This document shows, one piece after another, positions 4,262-61,223 of a DNA stretch of 64,000 nucleotides. The DNA comes from Candidatus Omnitrophota bacterium (lineage in GTDB: Bacteria > Omnitrophota > Gorgyraeia > JAFGIU01). Positions within the stretch are counted from its first letter, which is position 1. Every line of letters begins with the position of its first letter. Both the position numbers and the translations under genes were made by a program. Where the stretch lies: NCBI GenBank assembly GCA_016929445.1, contig JAFGIU010000041.1, positions 1,929 to 65,928 on the forward strand, read 5' to 3'. A model generated the notes under the pieces. That model made no database searches and was not told the DNA's origin. It saw only the letters and a program-made list of their open reading frames with translations.

Positions 4262-4316
4262 GGGGACAGGTCTCGCCAACCGCTTATACACCAATAAGTT
4301 GTATGAGAACCGTCCC
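4262..4316. repeat. Hairpin repeat family copy A (GGGGAC(A/G)G(T/G)TCTC ... GAGAACCGTCCCC arms, ~30-nt loop)
   Basis: Direct reading. Imperfect 13-bp inverted arms flank a variable loop, between convergent hemH and redoxin genes. Related copies at 8385, 40378 and 45979. Confidence 0.6.
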
Positions 4317-4325
4317 CGTATAGAA

Positions 4326-4907
4326 CTATCCGAAATAATCCGGCTCGTTCCCCGGCTTCCACTTAATATTGCAGCCCATGCTCGGTTTCTGATTTCCGTC
4401 CACAGTCCCGTTGATGACCACGGCGTCCATGGCCGCGCGCAGGTCTTTCCCTGTGACAGGTTTGCCGTTTTCCGGCCGGCTGTCGTCCAATTGTCCCCGG
4501 TAGGTGAGCTTGTGATTTGCGTTAAACAAAAAGAAGTCCGGGGTGCACGCAGCGGTGTAGGCCTTGGCTACTTCCTGGGTTTCGTCATAGAGCAGGGGAA
4601 AGGCGAAACCGAGCTGCTGCGCCATTTTCTTGAGCTTGTCCGGGGAGTCCTCAGGATGCGTGCCCACAAAGTTGGAGCTGATGGCGACAATAGCAACGTC
4701 CTTGTTTGCGTAATCCCTGCCGAGTCGTGCCAGCTCCTTCTGGACATGGACCACATAGGGGCAGTGCTTGCAGATGAACATGACCAAGAGGGCTGCCTTG
4801 TCCTTAGAGTCCTTGAGAGAGACTGTTTTTCCTGTGACCACATCCGGCAGGCTAAAATCCGGTGCCGCTGTGCCCAAAGCCAACATTGTCGATGGTGTGA
4901 GTGCCAC
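4326..4907 (-). CDS. Thioredoxin-fold redoxin (AhpC/TSA / TlpA-like thiol-disulfide oxidoreductase)
   Basis: CKHCPY CxxC motif in a redoxin context. 193 aa. Confidence 0.7.
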   Translation of the reverse strand: MALTPSTMLALGTAAPDFSLPDVVTGKTVSLKDSKDKAALLVMFICKHCPYVVHVQKELARLGRDYANKDVAIVAISSNFVGTHPEDSPDKLKKMAQQLGFAFPLLYDETQEVAKAYTAACTPDFFLFNANHKLTYRGQLDDSRPENGKPVTGKDLRAAMDAVVINGTVDGNQKPSMGCNIKWKPGNEPDYFG

Positions 4908-4938
4908 ATGTATTCCTTCTGTTTCACGAACGTTTCAC

Positions 4939-4977
4939 GGTGCCAGGCACCGGTGCCTGGCACCCGTGCCTGGCACC
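4939..4977. repeat. Palindromic repeat family copy 1 (GGTGCCAGGCACC|GGTGCCTGGCACC; core GGCACCGGTGCC)
   Basis: Perfect 26-bp palindrome plus an extra half-copy, flanked by CGTTTCACGG. It lies in the divergent intergenic region between the redoxin gene and giant-protein paralog P1. Related copies at 40657 and 60934. Confidence 0.7.
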
Positions 4978-8384: not shown

Positions 8385-8439
8385 GGGGACGGTTCTCACA
8401 GAACTGGATGCAGCGAAAAAGGCTAGCGAGAACCGTCCC
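8385..8439. repeat. Hairpin repeat family copy B
   Basis: GGGGACGGTTCTC ... GAGAACCGTCCC arms with a ~29-nt loop, immediately upstream of the gdh start. Confidence 0.6.
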
Positions 8440-11600: not shown

Positions 11601-13419
11601 GGCGCAGGTGGACGACCGAGCACTGTACACTCGACTTTCTGAATCCCGTCAGGCAGACCGAACATTGCTCCGCTACTTTAGGACAGATCCTTCCGCACGC
11701 ATGTGGGCGGTTCATCCTTATGGTGTTTCGCACATCGGGCCGGGCTCGGGTGCTGTGGATCAGTTGCGCATCCCTGTGCTGCCCGGAGTGTGGCCTGGAG
11801 GCTATGCCAGCTTGTTGCTCGAGGCTGCCCTGCCACTCATTCAGGAGGGGGACGAGGTGGTGGACCTGGGGTGTGGAACTGGGATTATTGGAATTCGTGC
11901 TGCTGAGCAAGGCGCGTTTGTGCAAGCCCTGGACTTAGACCTGATGGCTGTGGAAAACACGCGAGTTGCCGCAGAGATTTCTGGGGTGGCCGATCGCGTT
12001 GTGGCCAAGGTATCTGACGGGTTGGCCGAGGTGCAGGAGCCGGTGGACTTCATTCTTTTTGGTGCCCCATTGGTGCAGCCAGAAGCGGCCGAGGATGACG
12101 CGCGCCACACGGCCACACGGGATGGCGGATTCAATCTGATGCGGTCCGTTATGCAGGATCTTCCGAGAAAACTGAAGCCCGGAGGCTCGCTCATCATGTA
12201 CAACAACGACTTTGTGACAGAAAAGATCCTCAGAGGATTTCTGGGGGGGCATTCTGGTGACTTCCAAATGCGGAGTCGGAAAAGTGAGAGCGGACTGGTT
12301 GTCTGGGTAGTGGAATACCGGCCCGTGTTGTTGCCTTTGGGGCCAGAGGGGCTGCCGGATGCACTACACCTGAATATCCCGGGAACGGGATACAACTCGA
12401 TGGCAATTCCGGAAGTGGCGGAAATATTTCGTTCCTATTTGGATGATCTGGCAGATCCCGAAGGGGCTCTCGCCTTCCAGCTCAAACGAAACCTTGCAGG
12501 TTCGATGGCAGGCTGGCCGACCTTCGAAAATCATTCCGCCTTTTTGAGGCAAATCGGTGGAGAGGTTGGGATGGGTTCAACGGTCTACTATCCATTTGGA
12601 GGCGCCGATCCGTACACACCTTTTGCTATGGATTCTGATGTAGAGGATGTTATCGCTTTTGGTCTGGAAAACTTCGGTTCCCCGGGGGATATTCAAAAGA
12701 TGTTCGGAGACGGCAATTATTACCACAGGGTGGGTGGGTTATTCGGCGGGATTGATTCTCATCTGTCCTTAGTCAATATGCTGCAGCGTCTGGGCTTGAA
12801 CGGCATAGGACCTTTGGCTTTGGCACGTTGTGTCAATTTTTTGGGAGCAGGAATAGAGGGAGTTTACTATTTTGATCTCCAAGAGGACGGCGACTTTAGA
12901 TTTTTGACTGAGGAGGACATGCGCGACCGTCCTGAGCAAGGGTTTAGGAATGCCGTAATTCAGTTTGAAGATCCTCATACAGGAAGGCTCAAAAGGTTCT
13001 GGTATATGCAGGACAATGTCTATGATCAAACATCACCCTTCAGAGCAACCCTTGGAAGGTTGCGTTTCGATACCCTGCTTCTCAAAGGCGCGCTGGACTT
13101 TCTTGAACCCGGTACGGATCCAAGCGATGTGGTGGATGAAAAGGTACTGCAGCAGGCGCGAAGACTGAACGCCAATGTGGTTGCGGATATGAACCAACAG
13201 CATATGAGCCGAGGCATTTGGAGAGTTCGACCCGATAGTATTCCTATTCCATTGGGCGAAATGTTTGGCTACGGCGGTGTGCAGCAAGGCGGAGAAGTCC
13301 ACTATGGGCCCTCAACTATGCTGGTGGAAGGCCCGAGTCGTGCGGATGAGGCGCGGCAGTTGCACCTAGGGACATGGCCTTCGCAGCAGGCAATAGTCGC
13401 TATTGAATCTTCTCTGTAG
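8611..13419 (+). CDS. Giant secreted protein, paralog P2 (1602 aa), with an internal degenerate HemK/PrmC-like SAM methyltransferase domain
   Basis: Signal peptide (ANA-SAP). N-terminal block shared with P1. The MTase domain (~aa 1030-1200) has IPVLPGVWPGG (compare HemK VLIPRPETE) and VDLGCGTGIIG (motif I), but FGAP replaces the NPPY motif IV. The MTase region is shared with P3 (IPVLPGVWPPG ... LDLGCGTGVIG). Preceded by a 170-bp AT-rich region. Confidence 0.8.
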   Translation: MMKKRNLLPATIAFVSVLLAAIPCANASAPKLATIATFGDAEIEAFWIKRYRIDPTRLQRIAELSEASPRLFNTLIGRSNPGAAWLSLMLKEAAEEAGATGVPSEEVLRWMESQPGQQGWSLLADAKSVLAPSGRRKSLESLLGSEGSAQLLGWVNQTLAGPMPEGFHDPFRAYLGSDVVNEVRAINTVMRELGYPLSDWILEEWRELQRLGEQVALAIPNIENLDEEQRMQYPEYVRLKRMRNFLELYVNDLYQLEWIIRHTQEKEAEYWPAVWATLEVRAGVSRTQIQASESVIRDLLVNLPLEGSLRKPFIGEREQKILLRLSQEWGVPLGRLAALIEEEQHRGEKQKGLELLQSGRASVDYQIAMMHAFQENLAEILHAPIQAGEVIVHKIPSGESVTQLFATHATQPEYLASMALMGIMGEAPARKIAPSSVQALSGGAVTTGTSFQVGAVERTFGNIPNPYGFYDPQHNSMAKHGYQYFLMTNPRPGGEYGVFIPWQQMCEARRDRDLDIQLYQEWSVGGETFRRKIAELGRVGAEEWRDQMMTQLTIYNSDVQQRMRARGVRDLERAVQAWREEGTIATGRDPWMIEHRAAGEEQGEITIYPPVDGLDIDAQGGMLMVPAAQLEAFLLDIMQFAAEHGLPLNPDKVLPRVVPYEEENLQLAMLAMEHRDLNEVRASARDRVWRAWDALTGVRPRLELLSPETGREALELFGVVCCKVMAEKYGESLGQAAATIAGDPVTFAIIISNEDILSAFVEAVKKRFGAEISTEEVSKAFKKLWFHREVPTNPLLIAAEGDRVALSGFSAEEASRLLQAAVLASKGGILSEGKNSVVAASGGASITFYSSGTAIVGWRSEAKQWMAGQQRAWVREALTTAYAYDLFEEPHWDPFLRQYLHFLPLNLSEEVVERLLASENTNKEEVFTAPEERAIAEAAIRGIAGCPSEDLDWQSDPDGYEVAEISQQPDVLGRIFGSERIQRAWTVRYEGLPLLLAAQVDDRALYTRLSESRQADRTLLRYFRTDPSARMWAVHPYGVSHIGPGSGAVDQLRIPVLPGVWPGGYASLLLEAALPLIQEGDEVVDLGCGTGIIGIRAAEQGAFVQALDLDLMAVENTRVAAEISGVADRVVAKVSDGLAEVQEPVDFILFGAPLVQPEAAEDDARHTATRDGGFNLMRSVMQDLPRKLKPGGSLIMYNNDFVTEKILRGFLGGHSGDFQMRSRKSESGLVVWVVEYRPVLLPLGPEGLPDALHLNIPGTGYNSMAIPEVAEIFRSYLDDLADPEGALAFQLKRNLAGSMAGWPTFENHSAFLRQIGGEVGMGSTVYYPFGGADPYTPFAMDSDVEDVIAFGLENFGSPGDIQKMFGDGNYYHRVGGLFGGIDSHLSLVNMLQRLGLNGIGPLALARCVNFLGAGIEGVYYFDLQEDGDFRFLTEEDMRDRPEQGFRNAVIQFEDPHTGRLKRFWYMQDNVYDQTSPFRATLGRLRFDTLLLKGALDFLEPGTDPSDVVDEKVLQQARRLNANVVADMNQQHMSRGIWRVRPDSIPIPLGEMFGYGGVQQGGEVHYGPSTMLVEGPSRADEARQLHLGTWPSQQAIVAIESSL

Positions 13420-32964: not shown

Positions 32965-33875
32965 AAGTCTTAATTACCGGTGGATGCGGATTCATCGGTT
33001 CCAATCTCATTGACTACCTGCTTCCCAGGGGATACGAGCTCTCTATCCTCGACAATCTCAGCTCCGCAAGCGACGAATACGCGCGCGCCCAAAATGTCCC
33101 TGTCCAAGCCGGCGATATCCTGGATGACAATGCACTGAGTCAGAGCCTGGCCAATGTGGAATCGGTCGTGCATTTGGCCGCGCTGACCAGTGTGCCCGAT
33201 TCTATGGCGGATCCGTTGAGTAATTTCCGTGTCAATGTGGAAGGGACGTGGAAGGTGCTGGAAGCCTGCCGCACAGCCGGGGTGACACGCTTTGTTTTTG
33301 CCAGTTCCAACGCGGCCGTGGGGGAGCAGGAACCCCCGATCCGGGAGGACATTTTGCCGGCGCCCAAATCGCCTTACGGCGCGAGCAAGCTCATGGGAGA
33401 GGCGCTGGTCAGGAGCTATGCCGAGGCCTACGGGATCCAGGCCCTTTCCCTGCGTTTTGCCAATGTGTTCGGGCCCCATGCGGAGACCAAGGGAGCGGTT
33501 GTCGCGGCTTTTCAACGCAGTATTAAGCAGGGTAAACAGCTCACTATCTACGGGGACGGGGAACAGACCCGCGATTTTGTGCACGCTGCAGATATTGCGC
33601 AGGCCATCGAATTGGGCTTACAGAAGGGCGGCCACGGGCAGGTGTATCAGATTGCCAGCGGGAAAGAGACCTCCATTTTGGAACTGGCCATGAAGATTCT
33701 GAACCTGCACGGCAAAAACTACAAAGAAGGGGTGTGTTTTGCAGAGGCCCGGCCGGGAGATATTCTGCGCAATTACTCGGATATCGGCAGGGCAAGCGCG
33801 GAATTAGGATATGAGCCCAAAGAAGACCTCTGGTCCTTCCTAGAAGAATCCAAGATGCAGCCGAGCGGCTTCTGA
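32961..33875 (+). CDS. NAD-dependent epimerase/dehydratase (UDP-glucose 4-epimerase-like SDR)
   Basis: GGCGFIGSNL Rossmann motif, YGASK catalytic motif. 304 aa. Its start overlaps the sqdB stop. Confidence 0.85.
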   Translation: MKVLITGGCGFIGSNLIDYLLPRGYELSILDNLSSASDEYARAQNVPVQAGDILDDNALSQSLANVESVVHLAALTSVPDSMADPLSNFRVNVEGTWKVLEACRTAGVTRFVFASSNAAVGEQEPPIREDILPAPKSPYGASKLMGEALVRSYAEAYGIQALSLRFANVFGPHAETKGAVVAAFQRSIKQGKQLTIYGDGEQTRDFVHAADIAQAIELGLQKGGHGQVYQIASGKETSILELAMKILNLHGKNYKEGVCFAEARPGDILRNYSDIGRASAELGYEPKEDLWSFLEESKMQPSGF

Positions 33876-34151
33876 CATCATATTTTTGTCCCAGGGCGGT
33901 TCCCATACAAGTTCAACACGAGCTACGGCCACTCCCTCCACTCTCTCTGCAGCGCGCTGGACCGCAGGCGGGATGCTCTGTGCTTCGGGACAGGCCGGGG
34001 AAGTGAGGGTCATCCTGATGTCGACCTCACCCTCATCGTTGATCTCCAATCCGTAGATCAGACCCAATTCATAAATATCAATCGGAATCTCGGGATCGTA
34101 AACAGTCTTTAAAGCTTGCACAATATGGTCTTTGAGTTGTTCCTTATCCAT
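33840..34151 (-). CDS. sufT: SUF system Fe-S assembly protein SufT (DUF59/MIP18 family)
   Basis: DPEIPIDIYELGLIY motif and conserved Cys (TLTSPACP). 103 aa. Confidence 0.8.
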   Translation of the reverse strand: MDKEQLKDHIVQALKTVYDPEIPIDIYELGLIYGLEINDEGEVDIRMTLTSPACPEAQSIPPAVQRAAERVEGVAVARVELVWEPPWDKNMMSEAARLHLGFF

Positions 34152-34173
34152 TAGACTATCTCTCTAAAGGTTC

Positions 34174-34617
34174 TCATTCGGTTGAAACCGGGTCTTCTTG
34201 ATTCTCGAGGGCTGCCCGCAGCGTGTGCCAGGCGAGAGTGGCGCATTTGACGCGGGACGGAAATTCCCGAACCCCTCCGAAGACTGCGAGTTTTCCCAGG
34301 TTCTCGCTGATCTCGGCATTGCCCGTAACCACGTTGTGAAATGTCTCAAAAAGTGTTGCAGCCTCCTCCACGGACTTGCCTTTGAGGAGTGTGGTCATTA
34401 AGGAAGAAGACGCAGTGGAGATGGCGCAGCCTGAGCCTTCGAACTTGATATCCTCGATTATCCCGTCCTTTACCAAGAGATAGACCGTGATCTTATCCCC
34501 GCACAGGGGGTTGTCTCCGTGTGCGCAGTGATTGGCCTTGTCTATCTTGCCGAAATTCCGGGGCTTCTTGTTGTGGTCCAGGATGACTTCCTGGTAGAGA
34601 TCGCGCAGACCGGACAT
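34174..34617 (-). CDS. sufU: SufU/NifU-like Fe-S cluster scaffold (SUF system)
   Basis: Conserved Cys triad (NPLCGD, GSGCAISTAS, VKCATLAW). 147 aa. Confidence 0.85.
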   Translation of the reverse strand: MSGLRDLYQEVILDHNKKPRNFGKIDKANHCAHGDNPLCGDKITVYLLVKDGIIEDIKFEGSGCAISTASSSLMTTLLKGKSVEEAATLFETFHNVVTGNAEISENLGKLAVFGGVREFPSRVKCATLAWHTLRAALENQEDPVSTE

Positions 34618-40377: not shown

Positions 40378-40433
40378 GGGGACGGTTCTTGATTACCCCT
40401 TTCATCACGGCAGCTTACGCGAGAACCGTCCCC
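40378..40433. repeat. Hairpin repeat family copy C
   Basis: GGGGACGGTTCTT ... GAGAACCGTCCCC, beginning 6 nt after the stop of the small ORF. Confidence 0.6.
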
Positions 40434-40481
40434 TACAACCCGTAGTTATTAAAACTTTCACAATAATTGAAATAAGTCGGT

Positions 40482-43400
40482 TTGGATGCTAGACTTGAGC
40501 TTATGCATCCTTTTCGCTCCCACCCTCCTTTGAAGTCATTTAAGCCCCGCGGTTTTTGGGCCCTTCGGGGCTGGGCTGTCATGCGGCCAGTGGCCCTGCT
40601 GATTGCCCAAGTCTTCTTCTTTTCCAGCGTGGATTGCGCATGGACCTCTGACCTCGGTGCCAGGCACCGGTGTCAGGCACCGGTGTCAGGCACCGGTGTC
40701 AGGCACCAAAACTTGGCAGTGCGGGCCAGGTATGAAGGCGAGGTTGCCGCGGCAATGGACGCATGGCTGGTTGCTCCGGGAGTCAAGGAGCGTGTGCTTA
40801 TGCTGCCCACCGAGAGCCGTGCGCAACTGCTCGGCCTGGTTGGGGCTGAGCAGGAAGCATTTCTTCACAACAGAATGGTGGAGTTGGCCCTGGAGGACGG
40901 GCAGGCTGAGCTGGTGGCAGGGATGGCACAAAAGGCGCTTGAGCGCCTGGATTCTTCCGGGCCCAGAGGCTGGCCTCATCCGGCATTGGCGGAGAGTTCT
41001 GCAGCGCTCCGGGCGCTTTTGGAGCAAGACCCCTCTGCATACGAGCGTTTGCTGGCTCTGGAGGAGGAACGCTACGAGCGCACCTATCCGTACTCTGATT
41101 CAGTACTGGAAGACCTTCCTAATTTCCGCCGTCATCTCAATCACAAGCTCGCACTGTTGATGGTGGTGGAAGAGGTGGAGACAGTTCGATGGTTATTGGA
41201 TAAAGGGCTCCTTCAAGAACACGAGATTAACTCTTTTCTGAGTGTGCGACGCTTATTGCTTTCTCTGGTGATGACTCCCCAACCGGAACCCGAAAATGAC
41301 AGTGAGTATTGGCAGGTCCCGAATATTCAGGATCACCTGGGGCGGATGGGAAGCATGCTGTTGGTTTTGCTGTACGAAAACCGGGATCGCTTTGAGATTT
41401 CTTCCGACGAGATCTTGGAAGTCTACTTCACAGCCCTTACCCACGACTGGGGGGATTATTACACGGAGTCCAGCGATCTAATTGTGGTTAAGGAGGTTGC
41501 CCGGCAACTGGGCATTGACAGTTCGGCCGAGAAGTACCTTCGAGGCGGATTTCCGCAATTGTTGGAGGACCTCAACTTGGCGGTTGATGAGCGCGGGAAT
41601 GAAGTCGATCCCGCATGGATGACCCGCTACAATGCGGTTCAGCCCCGGTTCGATTTGTTGGTGACTCGCAGTAGCGCCAAGAATCCGCTGGATCATCATT
41701 CCAAAGGCCGCTACGAAGAGTTCCTGTTGAGGGAGGATGTGCGGGCGCTTTTGGAGCCGTTGAGTTTCCGGGGTCGTGCCGTGACCCGGATGCTGGACGA
41801 CTTCCGGTATCTGACGCACCACCACGCTTCCCAGGAGCTGGAGTTCGATCTGTCCCCAGAGTCTCATCGAGGCCCGCGCCTCGCAGAGGCACAGAAGCCC
41901 GCAGCGCAGGACATTCCCCGTCGCGTCCAATATTGGGAAGGTATCTCCCTGACCGGGGATCAGAAGGGCGTGTTGGCATTGCTTCAGGCCGCGGATATGT
42001 ATCAGAAGCGTCTCAATGCCGCCAACAACATGTGGTTCTATCTGAACAGTGTTCGAGCCTTCCGTCCCGCGGACGTAAAGGACTATGTGATGGCCTTTCC
42101 ATTTGCAAGGCCCATCGCCTCCAGCATAAGAAAGGTCGCGGATAGCGGCGATCCGCTCTTCTCCGGCGCGGCGGTGCGGAGTATGGGCTATGTAACGGAG
42201 TTGCCGGACACAGGAACGGGAGCTGCGGAAGAAGACCGGCCCGGCGCCAACACGGCATCGCGGGCAGGTGAAGTAGGCCACAGCACAATGAACCGGGTGG
42301 CCTTTATGAGCGACAAGTACCAGGCGTGGCGGGCGGGTGAGGGCGTGGAGGAGGGGGCCTTGCTGCGTGAGGCGCTTCCCTTGCCGGAGGATCTGCAAGG
42401 GTCTTGGGGCGGGTTTATGGCCGATCTGCAACAGCGCTTTGATGCGGTGGACGAGAGCGGGGCGCCTCTGATCCTGGACGGGATCGAGCTCCCGGCCTCC
42501 CAATCCCCGGCCGGCGGAATGCTGCGCGCCCCGCCCCTGCAGATTCCGCTCTCCGCTCTTCTCAACGGACAAGCCCGCATTGCCTCCGGCCTTCCCACCG
42601 GCGAAATGATCCACATCAAAGACACGTCCATCGTGCTTTTGGACACCGAAGAAGACTTCCTGGCGGCCGAGCTGCACGAGGATCTGGAGAGTGTGTCCGT
42701 GCAATTCGCGCATGCGGGCCGCGGGTTGCATGGCGAGCCGGGGCGGGAGCAGCGGCTGGTGGTGTATTTGTCCAAGGCCATGGTTGAGAAGGCGCTCCAC
42801 CGTGCGGAGGGCTATGCGCCGGAACACTTGATGGCCCTGATCGCCGAGGAGATGGCCGAGGAAGTGCGGCGCAGGCAGGCGGAGATGCTTTCGGCACAAT
42901 TGGGGCTCGGAGGGGCGGCCGCGGTGGCCCTGGAGCAACGCATTGTGGACGCAACGGACGCGCAGTTAACCAAAGCGGGCGGGGCGTTGGAAGGTGTTTT
43001 TACAGATCGCGATACGTATGCCCAGCTTGGAGATCGCAGAGAGCACCTCGTACAGTCCCTTGAGGGATTGGATACGGGCGTGCTTGCAAGATTGCGGCAG
43101 ACGGCTCCGGACAAGCTGGCGGAGTTCTTCCGCTATCGCGAGGCCCTGTTGGGGCCGAATCCTCCGCTCGACTGGCGCAATCTTCCGGCTAATGGGGCGC
43201 TCGATCTGTATGAATCCCATATTGCCGACGTGCTCGCATTGGAAATGGTGATTCAGGGATACAACCTGCACAAGGGACGGGTCGTATTTTCGATCGCCGA
43301 CTGGTTGGGTGCGGGCGCAGAGATCGCGGCGCGCGGTTCTTTTGATTTTGAAATCCGAGTAAAGCTGCCCGAACTGAATGGGGCGCCCTCGGAAATGAAG

Positions 43401-45917
43401 AGGCTTCTGCAAACGGAAATCAAGCATTTGGTCTTCTACCTCAAGCGGCACGCGGCCGGATATGCGTCCTCCAGCGAATTGGCCGCGGCAGAGAACGGCT
43501 ACTCAGACGGAGACGCCTTTGACTCTCTTGTTTTGGAAGAGATCCCGGATCATCTGGATGACATCCTTATGGGCCGGTCCACCTTTGCCTGGAAGGCGAG
43601 GCAAAGCAGAGAACGGGTAGGAGGGACCAGAAGAGCGAGTGTGGATAGATCCGCGAATGCGCATCCCTACGCAAAGCTTATAGTGGGCCGGATTTTGCCG
43701 GAGATGTTGCAGCGCTGGGGCGTGGATATTCAAGCCGAACCGGAGATTGGAGAAATCCTGGTGGAATTCGCCACCTGGTTTGTGGCCGAGGAGGAGCTGC
43801 GGCCGTATGGGGATTTGAGCGATCAGAGAACGTTGTCTCACAAGTTCATTTCGCGAATCCAGGCAATGGAGTCGGCGGACGCGCTTTACGCGGCCGTGGA
43901 TCGTCATTTGCAGCGGGCTGAAGCGCGGGCGCTTTTTCCGGATGCGGCACGCATGTTGAATCGGCGCAGGAGGGAGTTGATGCAGTGGAGAGATGCGCAA
44001 AGCGCGTATGAGGACGATTATTTGGAGCGCGCCAACGTGGGCTCCAGACAGCGCGGCTCGGTTTGGAGGCCTTGGGACTTCACGCGGGAAGAAAGCCAAC
44101 TCATTGCCGAGGCGTGTCTGCGTGGGGCCACGGGAGAAGGGGCCCCGGAGCTGGACTGGCAGCGCAGTGGGCGGCTGTATTGGGAAGCGCCGATCGGGAT
44201 CGATCCGTTTGTTCAGAAGCGCCTGTTTTCCGGCTCACAGGTCCAGCGCGCCTTTGCCGTTAAGGATTCTCAAGGTCTGCTGGCCGCGGTGGCCGCCACG
44301 CCGGAGGGATTCAAATACCTGCTGTTGACGGGCGGCGAGGGTGCGGTGGACCGGATGGACCGGTATATAAACCAGAAAGGCGGAGCCTCTCAGTGGAATC
44401 AGGTGGAAGAGGTCAGGCAGGGCTTCCTAAACGACGAGTTCGGAATAGAACGCACGAGCATCCCGGTTCTCCCTGGGGTATGGCCTCCGGGAGTGTCCGA
44501 TCCGCTCGCTTTGATCGCGCAACAGCGGATCAGGCCGGGCTCCACGGTCTTGGATCTGGGATGCGGGACCGGAGTGATCGGCAGTGTGTTGCCGGAGTGT
44601 TATGTGATCATGTCCGATATCGATCCGATGGGGGCCAGTAATGGAGAGATTTCCGCGAAATTGTGCGGAGCAGTGAGCGGGGTGGAGTCCATCCGCATGG
44701 ACGGGCTGCGCGGATTTAACAGAAAGGTGGATTGGATTGTTCTTGCCGCCCCGAGGCCGGTCCATGCGGCCGGTGCGGCGGAAGCGGCCACGGCAACACA
44801 GGATCCCGGAGGCCGCCTGTTGAACGAAGCGCTGCGGGAATTACCGCGGGTTCTGAACGCCCCGGGAGGCCTGCTGCTGATGGTGAGCAATGAGGTGGCT
44901 GTTCAAAGGAGGGTCCGGGAGATGCACGGGGAGGCTTTTTGGGTGGAGGTGGTGGACAGGGACCTCTACCAGCAGGTGGTTGCGGTCCAATGGAATATGG
45001 ATTTTTATCGCGAGCAGGCTGCGGTGCCCGGGGCCACGGAGGATTCTGCAGCGGGTCCTGCAGTCGTCACCGGCGACCTGGACCTTCTGATAGAGATTCT
45101 TTCAGAGACTCTGCCGGGATCAAACTTCCAACAATTTAACGGAGTGCCTTACTCGGTGACGCGGCTGCAAACCGGAGAGTGGCGGTTGACGATTCATAAG
45201 GGCGCCGAAGGATTTGAGGAATTGATGCCGCGGGGCAAAGACGGAGTCATCTATGATGACCCGGAAAGGATCGCCGAAAGCGTCAAAGCGAAGGCATTGG
45301 GTTTGCTGGGCGTTTACGAGGCCTCCCTGCCGGAAGCGCATGAATTTGGCGGGCCGTTGCTGGTGGTCGGCCCCGGGCCGACTCTGGGAGAGGTGGATGC
45401 GCTTGTGTCCCATTTTCAGGCTCTGGATAGCGGGAGTGTGGATGTGATGGAAGTGTCGAACCGGAACGTACTGTCTTTGCTGAGAAGACTCCAGGAAATT
45501 GAAGCGGAAGGCGGGGAGAATGAAGCTTTGCTGCACAGAGTGGGAACAATCCACCACGCCCGCTTCGGGCAAAATGCGGGCCTGCTGGAAGAGGCGCGCT
45601 ATGGGTTTGTCTATGCGTTCGGCTCCGTGGACAGGGATCTGGCCGTCACCGTGGCCGGAGGGCCGGCCAATCAGCAAGAGGCGGTGGCTGTGCTGGAGGC
45701 GCAGTGGCGCGAGCTGTGGCGCATTCTCCAAGCCGGGGGATTGGGGCTGGGGCACTTTGAGTCCGAGGGGCCGGGCATGCGCTCCTTTTACACAGGGCGC
45801 GAGGCGTGGCGCCGCTTCCAAACCTTGGGGAATCCACGCTTTGACAGGGCTCTGGACTGGGTTCACAAGCCTGAAGAACTGGCCGTTGCCGCAGCAGCCC
45901 TGGAATCCTCCATCTAG
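40482..45917 (+). CDS. Giant protein paralog P3 (up to 1811 aa) with a degenerate HemK-like SAM methyltransferase domain; start uncertain
   Basis: The MTase region (~aa 1330-1480) has IPVLPGVWPPG and VLDLGCGTGVIG, but LAAPRP replaces NPPY, and is shared with P2. Possible starts: 40482; 40581 (MRPVALLIAQVFFFSSVDCA, signal-like, which would place the palindromic repeat in-frame); or 40755 (MDAWLV, which places the repeat upstream). AT-rich 5' flank. Confidence 0.75.
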   Translation: MDARLELMHPFRSHPPLKSFKPRGFWALRGWAVMRPVALLIAQVFFFSSVDCAWTSDLGARHRCQAPVSGTGVRHQNLAVRARYEGEVAAAMDAWLVAPGVKERVLMLPTESRAQLLGLVGAEQEAFLHNRMVELALEDGQAELVAGMAQKALERLDSSGPRGWPHPALAESSAALRALLEQDPSAYERLLALEEERYERTYPYSDSVLEDLPNFRRHLNHKLALLMVVEEVETVRWLLDKGLLQEHEINSFLSVRRLLLSLVMTPQPEPENDSEYWQVPNIQDHLGRMGSMLLVLLYENRDRFEISSDEILEVYFTALTHDWGDYYTESSDLIVVKEVARQLGIDSSAEKYLRGGFPQLLEDLNLAVDERGNEVDPAWMTRYNAVQPRFDLLVTRSSAKNPLDHHSKGRYEEFLLREDVRALLEPLSFRGRAVTRMLDDFRYLTHHHASQELEFDLSPESHRGPRLAEAQKPAAQDIPRRVQYWEGISLTGDQKGVLALLQAADMYQKRLNAANNMWFYLNSVRAFRPADVKDYVMAFPFARPIASSIRKVADSGDPLFSGAAVRSMGYVTELPDTGTGAAEEDRPGANTASRAGEVGHSTMNRVAFMSDKYQAWRAGEGVEEGALLREALPLPEDLQGSWGGFMADLQQRFDAVDESGAPLILDGIELPASQSPAGGMLRAPPLQIPLSALLNGQARIASGLPTGEMIHIKDTSIVLLDTEEDFLAAELHEDLESVSVQFAHAGRGLHGEPGREQRLVVYLSKAMVEKALHRAEGYAPEHLMALIAEEMAEEVRRRQAEMLSAQLGLGGAAAVALEQRIVDATDAQLTKAGGALEGVFTDRDTYAQLGDRREHLVQSLEGLDTGVLARLRQTAPDKLAEFFRYREALLGPNPPLDWRNLPANGALDLYESHIADVLALEMVIQGYNLHKGRVVFSIADWLGAGAEIAARGSFDFEIRVKLPELNGAPSEMKRLLQTEIKHLVFYLKRHAAGYASSSELAAAENGYSDGDAFDSLVLEEIPDHLDDILMGRSTFAWKARQSRERVGGTRRASVDRSANAHPYAKLIVGRILPEMLQRWGVDIQAEPEIGEILVEFATWFVAEEELRPYGDLSDQRTLSHKFISRIQAMESADALYAAVDRHLQRAEARALFPDAARMLNRRRRELMQWRDAQSAYEDDYLERANVGSRQRGSVWRPWDFTREESQLIAEACLRGATGEGAPELDWQRSGRLYWEAPIGIDPFVQKRLFSGSQVQRAFAVKDSQGLLAAVAATPEGFKYLLLTGGEGAVDRMDRYINQKGGASQWNQVEEVRQGFLNDEFGIERTSIPVLPGVWPPGVSDPLALIAQQRIRPGSTVLDLGCGTGVIGSVLPECYVIMSDIDPMGASNGEISAKLCGAVSGVESIRMDGLRGFNRKVDWIVLAAPRPVHAAGAAEAATATQDPGGRLLNEALRELPRVLNAPGGLLLMVSNEVAVQRRVREMHGEAFWVEVVDRDLYQQVVAVQWNMDFYREQAAVPGATEDSAAGPAVVTGDLDLLIEILSETLPGSNFQQFNGVPYSVTRLQTGEWRLTIHKGAEGFEELMPRGKDGVIYDDPERIAESVKAKALGLLGVYEASLPEAHEFGGPLLVVGPGPTLGEVDALVSHFQALDSGSVDVMEVSNRNVLSLLRRLQEIEAEGGENEALLHRVGTIHHARFGQNAGLLEEARYGFVYAFGSVDRDLAVTVAGGPANQQEAVAVLEAQWRELWRILQAGGLGLGHFESEGPGMRSFYTGREAWRRFQTLGNPRFDRALDWVHKPEELAVAAAALESSI
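40657..40707. repeat. Palindromic repeat family copy 2 (GGTGCCAGGCACC followed by 3 tandem GGTGTCAGGCACC units)
   Basis: Direct reading. Same GGCACCGGTG core as copies 1 and 3. Lies at or just inside the 5' end of P3. Confidence 0.7.
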
Positions 45918-45978
45918 AAACTTTCACCCTTGCCGTCCCACCCTGTTTCGCTATACTAATTCATTCTGTCCTCATTCA

Positions 45979-46033
45979 GGGACAGGTCTCGCCATCTCAT
46001 TGCCGGCCAGTGGGTTACGCGAGACCCGTCCCC
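45979..46033. repeat. Hairpin repeat family copy D (variant arms GGGACAGGTCTCGC / GCGAGACCCGTCCCC)
   Basis: Between the P3 stop and bcp. A partial extra GGGGACGG follows at 46054. Confidence 0.55.
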
Positions 46034-60933: not shown

Positions 60934-60980
60934 GGTGTCAGGCACCGGTGCCAGGCACCGGTGCCTGACACCGTGAAACG
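60934..60980. repeat. Palindromic repeat family copy 3 (GGTGTCAGGCACC|GGTGCCAGGCACC|GGTGCCTGACACC, then GTGAAACG)
   Basis: Direct reading. Reverse-oriented relative to copy 1, including the CGTTTCAC flank. Sits 18 nt upstream of the epimerase start, at the head of the 10-gene glycan operon. Confidence 0.7.
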
Positions 60981-60983
60981 GGC

Positions 60984-61223
60984 TCAGAAGAGGTTCACGA
61001 ACAGGGCAAAGAGGGCGCCGGTCAGGGCGCCGTCGGCCAGGGCCCACAGGGATCCAAGCAGCAGGCCCCGGAAGGAGGGCCCAAAGCCCCGATAGATCCG
61101 CGAGAGGAGGCGTACCAGCTCCACGCCGGTGCCCCTTCGGGCCATGAGGCCCATCAAAAAGATGCACGATGACCAGGCCACGCCCACACTCAGGGCGCAG
61201 CGGGCCACATCCAAACGATGCAA
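60984..61223 (-). CDS. Possible small membrane protein (79 aa)
   Basis: Two hydrophobic stretches. Intergenic position between the large hypothetical gene and the palindrome. No other support. Confidence 0.3.
   Translation of the reverse strand: MHRLDVARCALSVGVAWSSCIFLMGLMARRGTGVELVRLLSRIYRGFGPSFRGLLLGSLWALADGALTGALFALFVNLF

Follow-up and report, generated by a model that had tools for sequence, protein, structure and literature searches.

The 64,000-nucleotide stretch of DNA considered here, hereafter the window (contig JAFGIU010000041.1 of assembly GCA_016929445.1, from a Candidatus Omnitrophota bacterium), contains a long open reading frame (ORF), named P3, at positions 40482-45917 of the + strand, the 5' part of which overlaps a tandem array of short palindromes. 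P3 is a genuine gene restricted to one lineage; its host is an uncultured member of the Omnitrophota, a phylum for which, to our knowledge, almost no experimental data exist. The explanation that we favour, and consider reasonably probable as a whole, is that P3 is translated from ATG 40581, is exported, carries an altered methyltransferase module and tolerates inside its reading frame an array similar to repetitive extragenic palindromic (REP) elements. One part of this explanation, namely the translation of the array as an 18-residue linker, seems to us highly probable. The case for P3 is built on a single sequence.

The coding character of P3 was assessed with a codon-usage model, for which 36 housekeeping genes of the window served as the training set and the coding mean was 0.29. 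Frame 0 of P3 gave positive codon log-odds and the top value of the six frames in 17 of 17 consecutive 100-codon windows, which makes P3 a real gene written in the codon dialect of its host. Counted from TTG 40482, the ORF comprises 1811 codons, and the length of 1811 aa ascribed to the protein in the earlier note is correct for this ORF. As a protein length it does not stand, since TTG 40482 was found to have no support as a start codon; the public record (MBN1586500.1, 'MAG: methyltransferase [Candidatus Omnitrophica bacterium]', on a contig of 83,996 bp) begins at ATG 40503 and gives 1804 aa, and the coding sequence from the ATG that we prefer (40581..45917, + strand) gives 1778 aa plus stop. 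The boundaries of the ORF, the in-frame position of ATG 40755 and the places of the peptides quoted earlier (MRPVALLIAQVFFFSSVDCA, GARHRCQAPVSGTGVRHQ, IPVLPGVWPPG, LDLGCGTGVIG and LAAPRP) were all found to be right. The label 'methyltransferase' on the public record conceals that 85% of the protein is uncharacterised and that the catalytic motif is altered.

Translation of P3 most likely begins at ATG 40581 and less likely at the annotated ATG 40503; the start codon had to be judged by internal evidence because no orthologue of P3 was found in the searched collections. A start at 40581 gives a signal-peptide-like N-terminus, MRPVALLIAQVFFFSSVDCA (40581..40640, + strand). Arg2 of this segment (MRPVALLIAQVFFFSSV) precedes a hydrophobic core of 14 uncharged residues with a mean hydropathy of 2.35, so that the basic n-region and the uncharged hydrophobic core of at least 12 residues expected of a Sec signal are both present. 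According to a simple hydrophobic-core score, which is not a trained predictor, P3 reached 2.35, P1 2.36 and P2 2.64, the last two being paralogues with clear signal peptides at their N-termini. The score of P3 at 40581 was reached by 0.8% of the 1806 ATGs in the window. All the signal-like ATGs (score >=2.0) standing before an ORF of >200 aa proved to be plausible true starts or membrane segments (12/12), and the spurious signal-like rate among non-start ATGs was ~0.3-0.6%. The candidate cleavage site, between VDCA and W, has Ala at -1 and Asp at -3, and the N-terminal segment may be an uncleaved anchor instead of a cleaved signal. We infer that a Sec-type signal peptide or anchor leads to the export or membrane tethering of P3. 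Of the long Omnitrophota proteins, 94% were reported to have a signal peptide or transmembrane helix (10.64898/2026.06.07.730766), and methyltransferase domains are also common in them (10.64898/2026.06.07.730766; 10.1101/2023.11.21.568195).

Codon usage is coding-like on either side of the array, with scores of +0.22 at 40581-40655, including the signal segment, and +0.24 at 40710-40754. Such scores are matched by 5.6-7.6% of stop-free non-coding windows, the non-coding null having been computed without the Suf genes at 33840-34617. The stretch 40503-40580 scores -0.04, which is the 3rd percentile of coding windows; the extension to ATG 40503 is thus doubtful and 40581 is preferred. By codon usage, the public record starts P3 26 codons too early. 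Between 40476 and 40755 the frame of P3 alone stays open.

A promoter-like site matching the consensus (TTGAAA, 17 nt and TAGACT, with TG before the second hexamer; 40467..40495, + strand) lies upstream of both ATG 40503 and ATG 40581. The annotated start codon (40503..40505, + strand) stands 7 nt after the -10-like box, in a leaderless-type geometry. Throughout the window, a -10-like TANNNT hexamer was found 5-10 nt before 7 of 39 gene starts vs 4.4% of all ATGs, suggesting frequent use of leaderless or near-leaderless mRNAs by this organism, and TGCTAGACT occurs twice, both times 7-8 nt upstream of a start codon. The starts preceded by TANNNT are 14235, 14919, 21507 (- strand), 29228, 46659, 49295 and 60916 (- strand), and also 40503; a ribosome-binding motif is present at a minority of genes. 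For P3 we prefer the start at 40581, which would have a 5' leader of ~78 nt. The earlier note had left two options open, 40581 with the repeat in frame and 40755 with the repeat upstream of the gene. The first is now favoured by the signal score, by codon usage and by the comparison with P1 and P2, and the second is disfavoured.

The array is built of a 13-bp palindromic unit, GGTGYCWGGCACC, whose copies follow one another strictly head to tail. In P3, the array (40655..40707, + strand) comprises 4.1 copies, one GGTGCCAGGCACC followed by three identical GGTGTCAGGCACC, and the identity of these three units suggests local amplification. Read in frame (40656-40709), it encodes GARHRCQAPVSGTGVRHQ and corresponds to codons 25-43 counted from ATG 40581. 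Two further arrays of 3.1 copies each are intergenic, as had been stated before. The first of them (4938..4977) separates the divergent AhpC/TSA-like gene (4326-4907, - strand) from P1 and, on the - strand, comes directly after a TACAAT box. The second (60934..60973), a perfect 39-nt palindrome of 3 units, starts 10 nt beyond the point where a small - strand ORF stops, and the epimerase gene has its TGCTAGACT box immediately next to the array. The pattern of the 13-nt unit has 20 matches in the window vs 0.33 expected, and the pattern GGCACCGGTG has 9 vs 0.13 expected, with as many found in 0 of 100 shuffles; no solitary 13-nt units were present outside the three arrays in the 64 kb. The predicted RNA hairpin of the P3 array has -47.1 kcal/mol (z -5.1). 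For the three arrays the values are -47.1, -36.1 and -41.3 kcal/mol, with z from -3.5 to -6.6, and the opposite strands fold about equally. Strand-specific RNA pairing by G-U wobble in the T-variant units was considered and discarded, as the two strands give -47.1 vs -45.1 kcal/mol. Reading TGGCAC in the unit as a sigma-54 promoter was also discarded because the GG-to-GC spacing, as read from the sequence, mismatches that of -24/-12 promoters.

The same element occurs far beyond this organism. A scan of 185,579 species genomes (GTDB) for two adjacent units gave 25 loci (L001-L025), and ~0.004 loci would be expected according to our own estimate. These loci are concentrated in five unrelated metagenome-assembled genomes (MAGs), with many arrays per genome and an identical unit: Gaiellales BP_430, Actinomycetota BR1F70218_bin_207, an uncultured Actinomycetes MAG, Proteobacteria casp150-mb.100 and Gammaproteobacteria KW1-S15_96. 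None of the 11 loci examined in the two proteobacterial MAGs lies inside a long ORF, and several are placed between convergent genes. In Proteobacteria casp150-mb.100, most arrays have A and T runs on their flanks and in this resemble bidirectional terminators. The cross-phylum intergenic arrays indicate that the element behaves as a dispersed REP-type hairpin and not as one peculiar to P3. When the literature was searched for the repeat sequence, the only matches were unrelated primers and constructs. Regarding the surroundings of the units, the flank GTGAAACG and nearby TTCGTGAA/TTCACGAA are common to two of the three arrays of the window (4921-4938, 60973-61000), similar flanks, CACGGTTCATGAC and GTCACGAACCGTGAC, accompany Gaiellales arrays (L005, L006, L013 and L015), and the P3 array is without this flank.

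The favoured explanation can be described as follows. Translation of P3 would begin at ATG 40581, and the Sec-type signal peptide or anchor would lead the product out of the cell or to the membrane. About 25 codons after the start, the REP-like array would be read in frame, giving the linker of 18 residues that joins the signal peptide to the mature protein. The array is most probably a tolerated insertion that, as the identity of three of its units suggests, expanded locally in the linker; we do not consider it a dedicated regulatory site. Near the beginning of its coding region the mRNA would bear a -47 kcal/mol hairpin, which might, speculatively, pause ribosomes at about codons 25-42 of the message. 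A slip of one or two units would shift the frame of P3, because the unit has 13 nt and only changes by three copies keep the frame. Most copy changes would thus switch P3 off and would not vary its N-terminus. For this reason the earlier idea of an N-terminus varying with copy number had to be abandoned, and on/off behaviour is what would be expected instead. If the array is translated, P3 is one of the rare genes that tolerate a REP-type palindromic element within the reading frame, and the array, by its position right after an export signal, could pause ribosomes or switch the gene by slippage.

A number of observations weigh against this explanation. The P3 array itself has a codon score of -0.36, non-coding-like in every frame. 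All other placed copies are intergenic (2/2 in the window and the 11 loci in the proteobacterial MAGs), and by this precedent the P3 copy would be expected to be non-coding too. Stop-free runs are found in non-coding frames in 21% of 58-codon windows and 11% of 91-codon windows; an open frame is therefore weak evidence for coding. ATG 40581 is not preceded by a ribosome-binding motif, as is also the case in P1 and P2, and Asp at -3 of the candidate cleavage site is unfavourable for signal cleavage. A profile of the N-terminal motif of P1 and P2 gave E = 6 with P3, which is not significant, so the support from the paralogues consists in shared architecture and not in alignable sequence upstream of 40755. 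An alignment of P1 with P3 (QHLATT...ESR / QNLAVR...ESR) was examined as coding support for this region and rejected (BLAST E 0.19; profile rank 13th among six-frame segments). To these points should be added the low confidence of the structure model of the methyltransferase module (mean predicted local distance difference test, pLDDT, 51.6) and the absence of a P3 orthologue from every collection searched.

Several of the same facts speak for a start further downstream, at ATG 40755 (40755..40757, + strand, in frame) or ATG 40800 (+ strand). The array would then form an RNA hairpin in a 5' leader of ~250 nt, for example serving as a stabiliser or a processing barrier, in keeping with the two other copies of the window, which stand in untranslated regions, and the signal-like extension would be due to chance. 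The non-coding character of the array in every frame, the intergenic position of all other placed copies and the frequency of open frames of this length by chance agree with such a start. So do the clearest coding signal, which runs from ~40752, and the array at 4938-4977, with which, given the TACAAT box directly before it on the - strand, the AhpC-like mRNA may begin. There are also GAGG 11 nt upstream of 40755 and AAGGAG 9 nt upstream of 40800. The earlier note had proposed ribosome-binding-site modelling as a check of the start, but these motifs turned out not to be distinctive: pairings of a ribosome-binding-like motif with an ATG number ~38 in the window, nearly all of them intragenic, with 7 more within P3, and the motifs before 40755 and 40800 were dropped as start evidence, being no better than chance. 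A signal-like in-frame ATG would be expected at ~0.3-0.8% of ATGs, and the 15 codons between the array and 40755 are coding-like (+0.24, a value found in 7.5% of non-coding windows), as is the signal segment. Moreover, with a start at 40755, P3 would be the only member of its family without a signal peptide, since P1 and P2 have one. In our opinion, a downstream start is unlikely.

It may also be asked if the in-frame array is a phase-variation switch, in which slipped-strand mispairing of the 13-nt units would turn the exported P3 on and off, and restart at 40755 or 40800 might give a signal-less form. The unit length is not a multiple of 3, the array stands in the 5' coding region right after the signal peptide, three consecutive identical units point to recent local amplification, and changes of one or two units would shift the frame, whereas loss of three would keep it. 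However, there are only ~4 copies, and known contingency loci usually have longer arrays. The same element is intergenic at other loci and in other phyla, that is, it is not locus-specific. We give little credence to the switch. A broader version, in which a REP-like array mobile across phyla has been co-opted as a slippage-prone switch after the signal peptide, a one-unit change stops export or gives a cytoplasmic form, and P1-P4 make up an unrecognised family of exoproteins sorted by [DE]-S-[SA]-[IL], deserves very little. Finally, a shared operator- or iteron-like protein-binding site co-regulating the AhpC-like gene, P3 and the epimerase gene, close to the shared cis-element suggested earlier, is scarcely credible: each unit is a perfect or near-perfect palindrome, as would suit a dimeric DNA-binding protein, and each of the three arrays lies within ~160 nt of a promoter-like box, but their positions relative to the promoter differ (after a -10-like box; ~160 nt downstream, probably in coding sequence; in the -35 region), the three genes are not evidently linked in function, in unrelated phyla the identical arrays often lie between convergent gene ends with terminator-like A/T-run flanks, and the 13-bp period puts the sites off one face of the DNA helix.

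Returning to P3 as read from ATG 40581, its one recognisable domain is shared with P2. The two proteins have one common block of 288 aa with 34% identity (BLASTP, E 8e-33), all other local alignments between them having E >0.01, and the earlier statement that they share a methyltransferase core and are otherwise unrelated is thereby borne out. In P3, the shared module occupies 44079..44930 (+ strand, residues 1167-1450) and consists of ~125 family-specific aa followed by a class I S-adenosylmethionine (SAM) methyltransferase-like core (44460..44885, + strand), this domain corresponding to the last ~170 residues of the block. The core contains the motif X-like sequence IPVLPGVWPPG at 44460-44492, the motif I sequence LDLGCGTGVIG at 44550-44582, in which the GxGxG SAM loop is intact and invariant between P2 and P3, and an altered motif IV, WIVLAAPRP, at 44733-44759. 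In a profile alignment with solved methyltransferases, the motif IV position of Asn/Asp holds Ala in P3 (IVLAAPRP) and Gly in P2 (ILFGAPLV), where GenN has IVFNSP. The description of the domain as degenerate, with the NPPY position changed, was accurate in this sense. By its sequence, the module probably ends in a class I SAM methyltransferase fold, with the SAM loop kept and the motif IV Asn/Asp lost. In enzymes of the GenN, HemK/PrmC, PrmA and RsmC types this residue positions the target amino nitrogen. The P2/P3 module would accordingly bind SAM without N-methylating or act on a different atom.

The assignment to a methyltransferase fold is consistent with profile and structure comparisons. 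The Pfam family MTS (PF05175) was matched by P3 with 26.2 bits and by P2 with 43.3 bits, the gathering cut-off being 23. A P2+P3 profile searched against the PDB found GenN (5U4T, E 5e-7), then PrmA and HemK. The nearest NCBIfam models were those of PRK14968 and HemK2/MTQ2, with equivalog cut-offs not reached: P3 scored 33.8 vs 243 (NF011530) and 16.9 vs 87 (TIGR00537), and P2 54.8 vs 162 (NF011529). The top-scoring profile for the core was PADLOC mad2 (PDLC04134), with E 2.8e-11 for P3 and 1.1e-17 for P2. The match covers profile positions 281-423 of 492, i.e., the core alone, and no other mad or defence genes were found beside P3, the neighbours being Suf, Rrf2, AhpC and radical SAM genes by Pfam. 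As a separate observation, mad2 outscores all Pfam and NCBIfam models on the cores at 44460-44885 (P3) and 11770-12200 (P2). A two-sequence AlphaFold2 model of the module (mean pLDDT 51.6) showed core blocks with values of 61-88 and the expected order of strands and helices, and its top Foldseek matches were all class I methyltransferases (E ~3e-8, template modelling score ~0.4). A structure model of the C-terminal 288 aa (pLDDT 38.5) was unusable.

P3 belongs to a genome-specific set of proteins that are probably exported and share the form of their C-terminal tail. This set includes P1 (5105..7021, + strand), a protein of 638 aa with a signal peptide, no known domains and the tail DLDSSI; P2 (MBN1586473.1; 8614..13419, + strand), a protein of 1601 aa with a signal peptide, the paralogous module and the tail AIESSL; P3, ending in ALESSI-COOH (45897..45914, + strand); and P4 (61410..63998, - strand), of at least 862 aa, with no known domains and the tail DLESAL, whose N-terminus probably lies beyond the end of the window. 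The form common to the four tails is [DE]-S-[SA]-[IL] (P1 7001-7018, P2 13399-13416, P3 45897-45914 and P4 61413-61430 on the - strand). No other real gene of the window ends in this way, and the number of such endings expected among ~47 genes, estimated from background residue frequencies, is ~0.008. Outside the methyltransferase core, P1-P4 gave no Pfam or NCBIfam match. After the signal peptide, P1 (5222-5350) and P2 (8704-8835) share the motif LAT..TFG..EI...W....P..LQRIAELS (48% identity over 44 aa, E 4e-6), and P3 and P4 show weak further similarity in their last ~70 residues. The tail, common to four otherwise unrelated orphans, could be a sorting or recognition signal and is a lead to such signals in Omnitrophota. 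The form S/T-x-hydrophobic-COOH is that of class I PDZ ligands, which we take as a lead only.

Relatives of P3 were looked for in large collections. The GTDB species genomes contained no relative of P3, and the contigs of JGI metagenomes contained no relative either of P3 or of the module shared by P2 and P3. A word search of 5.8 billion proteins and an exhaustive HMMER search with residues 1-1200 of P3 against 1.84 billion cluster representatives each returned P3 itself as the sole match. Exact-product look-ups with P3 and two neighbouring genes gave no record of a second copy of the locus. Word-indexed searches with sub-fragments missed even the protein of the query itself and are weak negatives. 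No matches to the non-methyltransferase parts of P3 were obtained in Pfam and PDB sequence searches, and a PHROGs search found nothing.

A second dispersed hairpin element occurs in the window. This family (GGGGACGGTTCTC...GAGAACCGTCCCC, ~55 nt) is intergenic, with folding energies from -27 to -33 kcal/mol and 8 pattern matches vs 1.05 expected. Its copies are at 4263-4317, at 8385-8439 before P2, and on either side of P3: the element GGGGACGGTTCT ... AGAACCGTCCCC (40378..40433, + strand; -26.8 kcal/mol, z -4.7) follows the stop of a STI1-like ORF, and another copy (45978..46033, + strand; -32.6 kcal/mol, z -4.4) lies just 3' of the P3 stop. The copy upstream of P3, at 40378-40433, is probably a terminator-like or REP-like element.

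The surroundings of P3 are housekeeping genes. Upstream are the Suf operon and an Rrf2 regulator on the - strand, then the small STI1-like ORF on the + strand, and downstream are an AhpC-type peroxiredoxin, a radical SAM protein, a methyltransferase and a formyltransferase, as recognised by Pfam. Two short - strand genes, DUF59/SufT-like (33840-34151) and SufU/IscU-like (34174-34617), complete the Suf cluster. Rfam and tRNA scans of the window gave no matches. In base composition, the distal two-thirds of P3 (42-46 kb) have a G+C content of 0.605 and a GC skew of 0.14-0.17, the averages of the window being ~0.55 and ~0.06. The P3 protein is rich in Ala, Glu, Arg and Gly and low in Lys and Ile, with 0.3% Cys.

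Comparing P3 with known systems, it may be concluded that the finding combines features of known kinds, namely an orphan, apparently exported protein of a type common in Omnitrophota, a methyltransferase-like domain lacking a key catalytic residue and an unusual, probably intragenic REP-like array, and is not a new kind of system. With the MTS/HemK-PrmC/PrmA/RsmC/GenN group (PF05175; PDB 5U4T, 1UFK, 1NV8 and 2PJD), P3 shares the order of motifs and probably the fold class: a GVF/GVW-type motif stands before the core, then come the GxGxG SAM loop, an acidic residue that follows strand 2 and, following strand 4, a motif IV that contains proline. Unlike GenN (NSP) and HemK (NPPY), P3 has Ala and P2 Gly as the motif IV residue, and, unlike in the MTS/HemK/PrmA group, the domain of P3 is placed inside an apparently exported protein of ~1800 aa, ~1500 residues of which match nothing. 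The cores of P2 and P3 also resemble Mad2 of the MADS anti-phage system as their top profile match. They differ from it in that the match is partial, the neighbours are housekeeping genes and the proteins have predicted signal peptides.

Like REP elements and bacterial interspersed mosaic elements, the arrays of the window, three in 64 kb, are short GC-rich palindromes that form stable hairpins, are dispersed, stand in tandem clusters and are usually intergenic, in untranslated parts of transcripts. They differ in the unit of 13 bp only and in the strict head-to-tail arrangement, and the P3 copy probably lies inside a reading frame instead of between genes. The unit is also found in several phyla, unlike classical species-specific REPs. 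No transposase was seen among the large ORFs scanned in the 64-kb window, and no search was aimed at a REP-associated transposase. Another relevant comparison is with the opa genes of Neisseria, where CTCTT repeats in the signal-peptide coding region give translational phase variation. As in opa, the unit length of the P3 array is not a multiple of three, and the array stands near the 5' end of a gene whose product is probably exported. If the start at 40581 is correct, P3 would have one feature of a contingency locus, a tandem unit indivisible by three in the 5' coding region. Unlike in opa, the P3 array consists of ~4 palindromic units and is not locus-specific.

The giant proteins of Omnitrophota, of the Archaeovorin/dockerin type, have tens of thousands of residues and many tiled enzyme domains (10.1101/2023.11.21.568195; 10.64898/2026.06.07.730766). 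P3 does not belong to this type by length or by tiled domains: unlike proteins of 10,000 to >100,000 residues, it has 1,778 residues and one recognisable domain, and no sequence similarity between P3 and these giants was detected. Nevertheless, like the long proteins of Omnitrophota in general (10.1101/2023.11.21.568195; 10.64898/2026.06.07.730766), P3 combines a predicted signal peptide, stretches free of domains and an embedded domain of the methyltransferase type.

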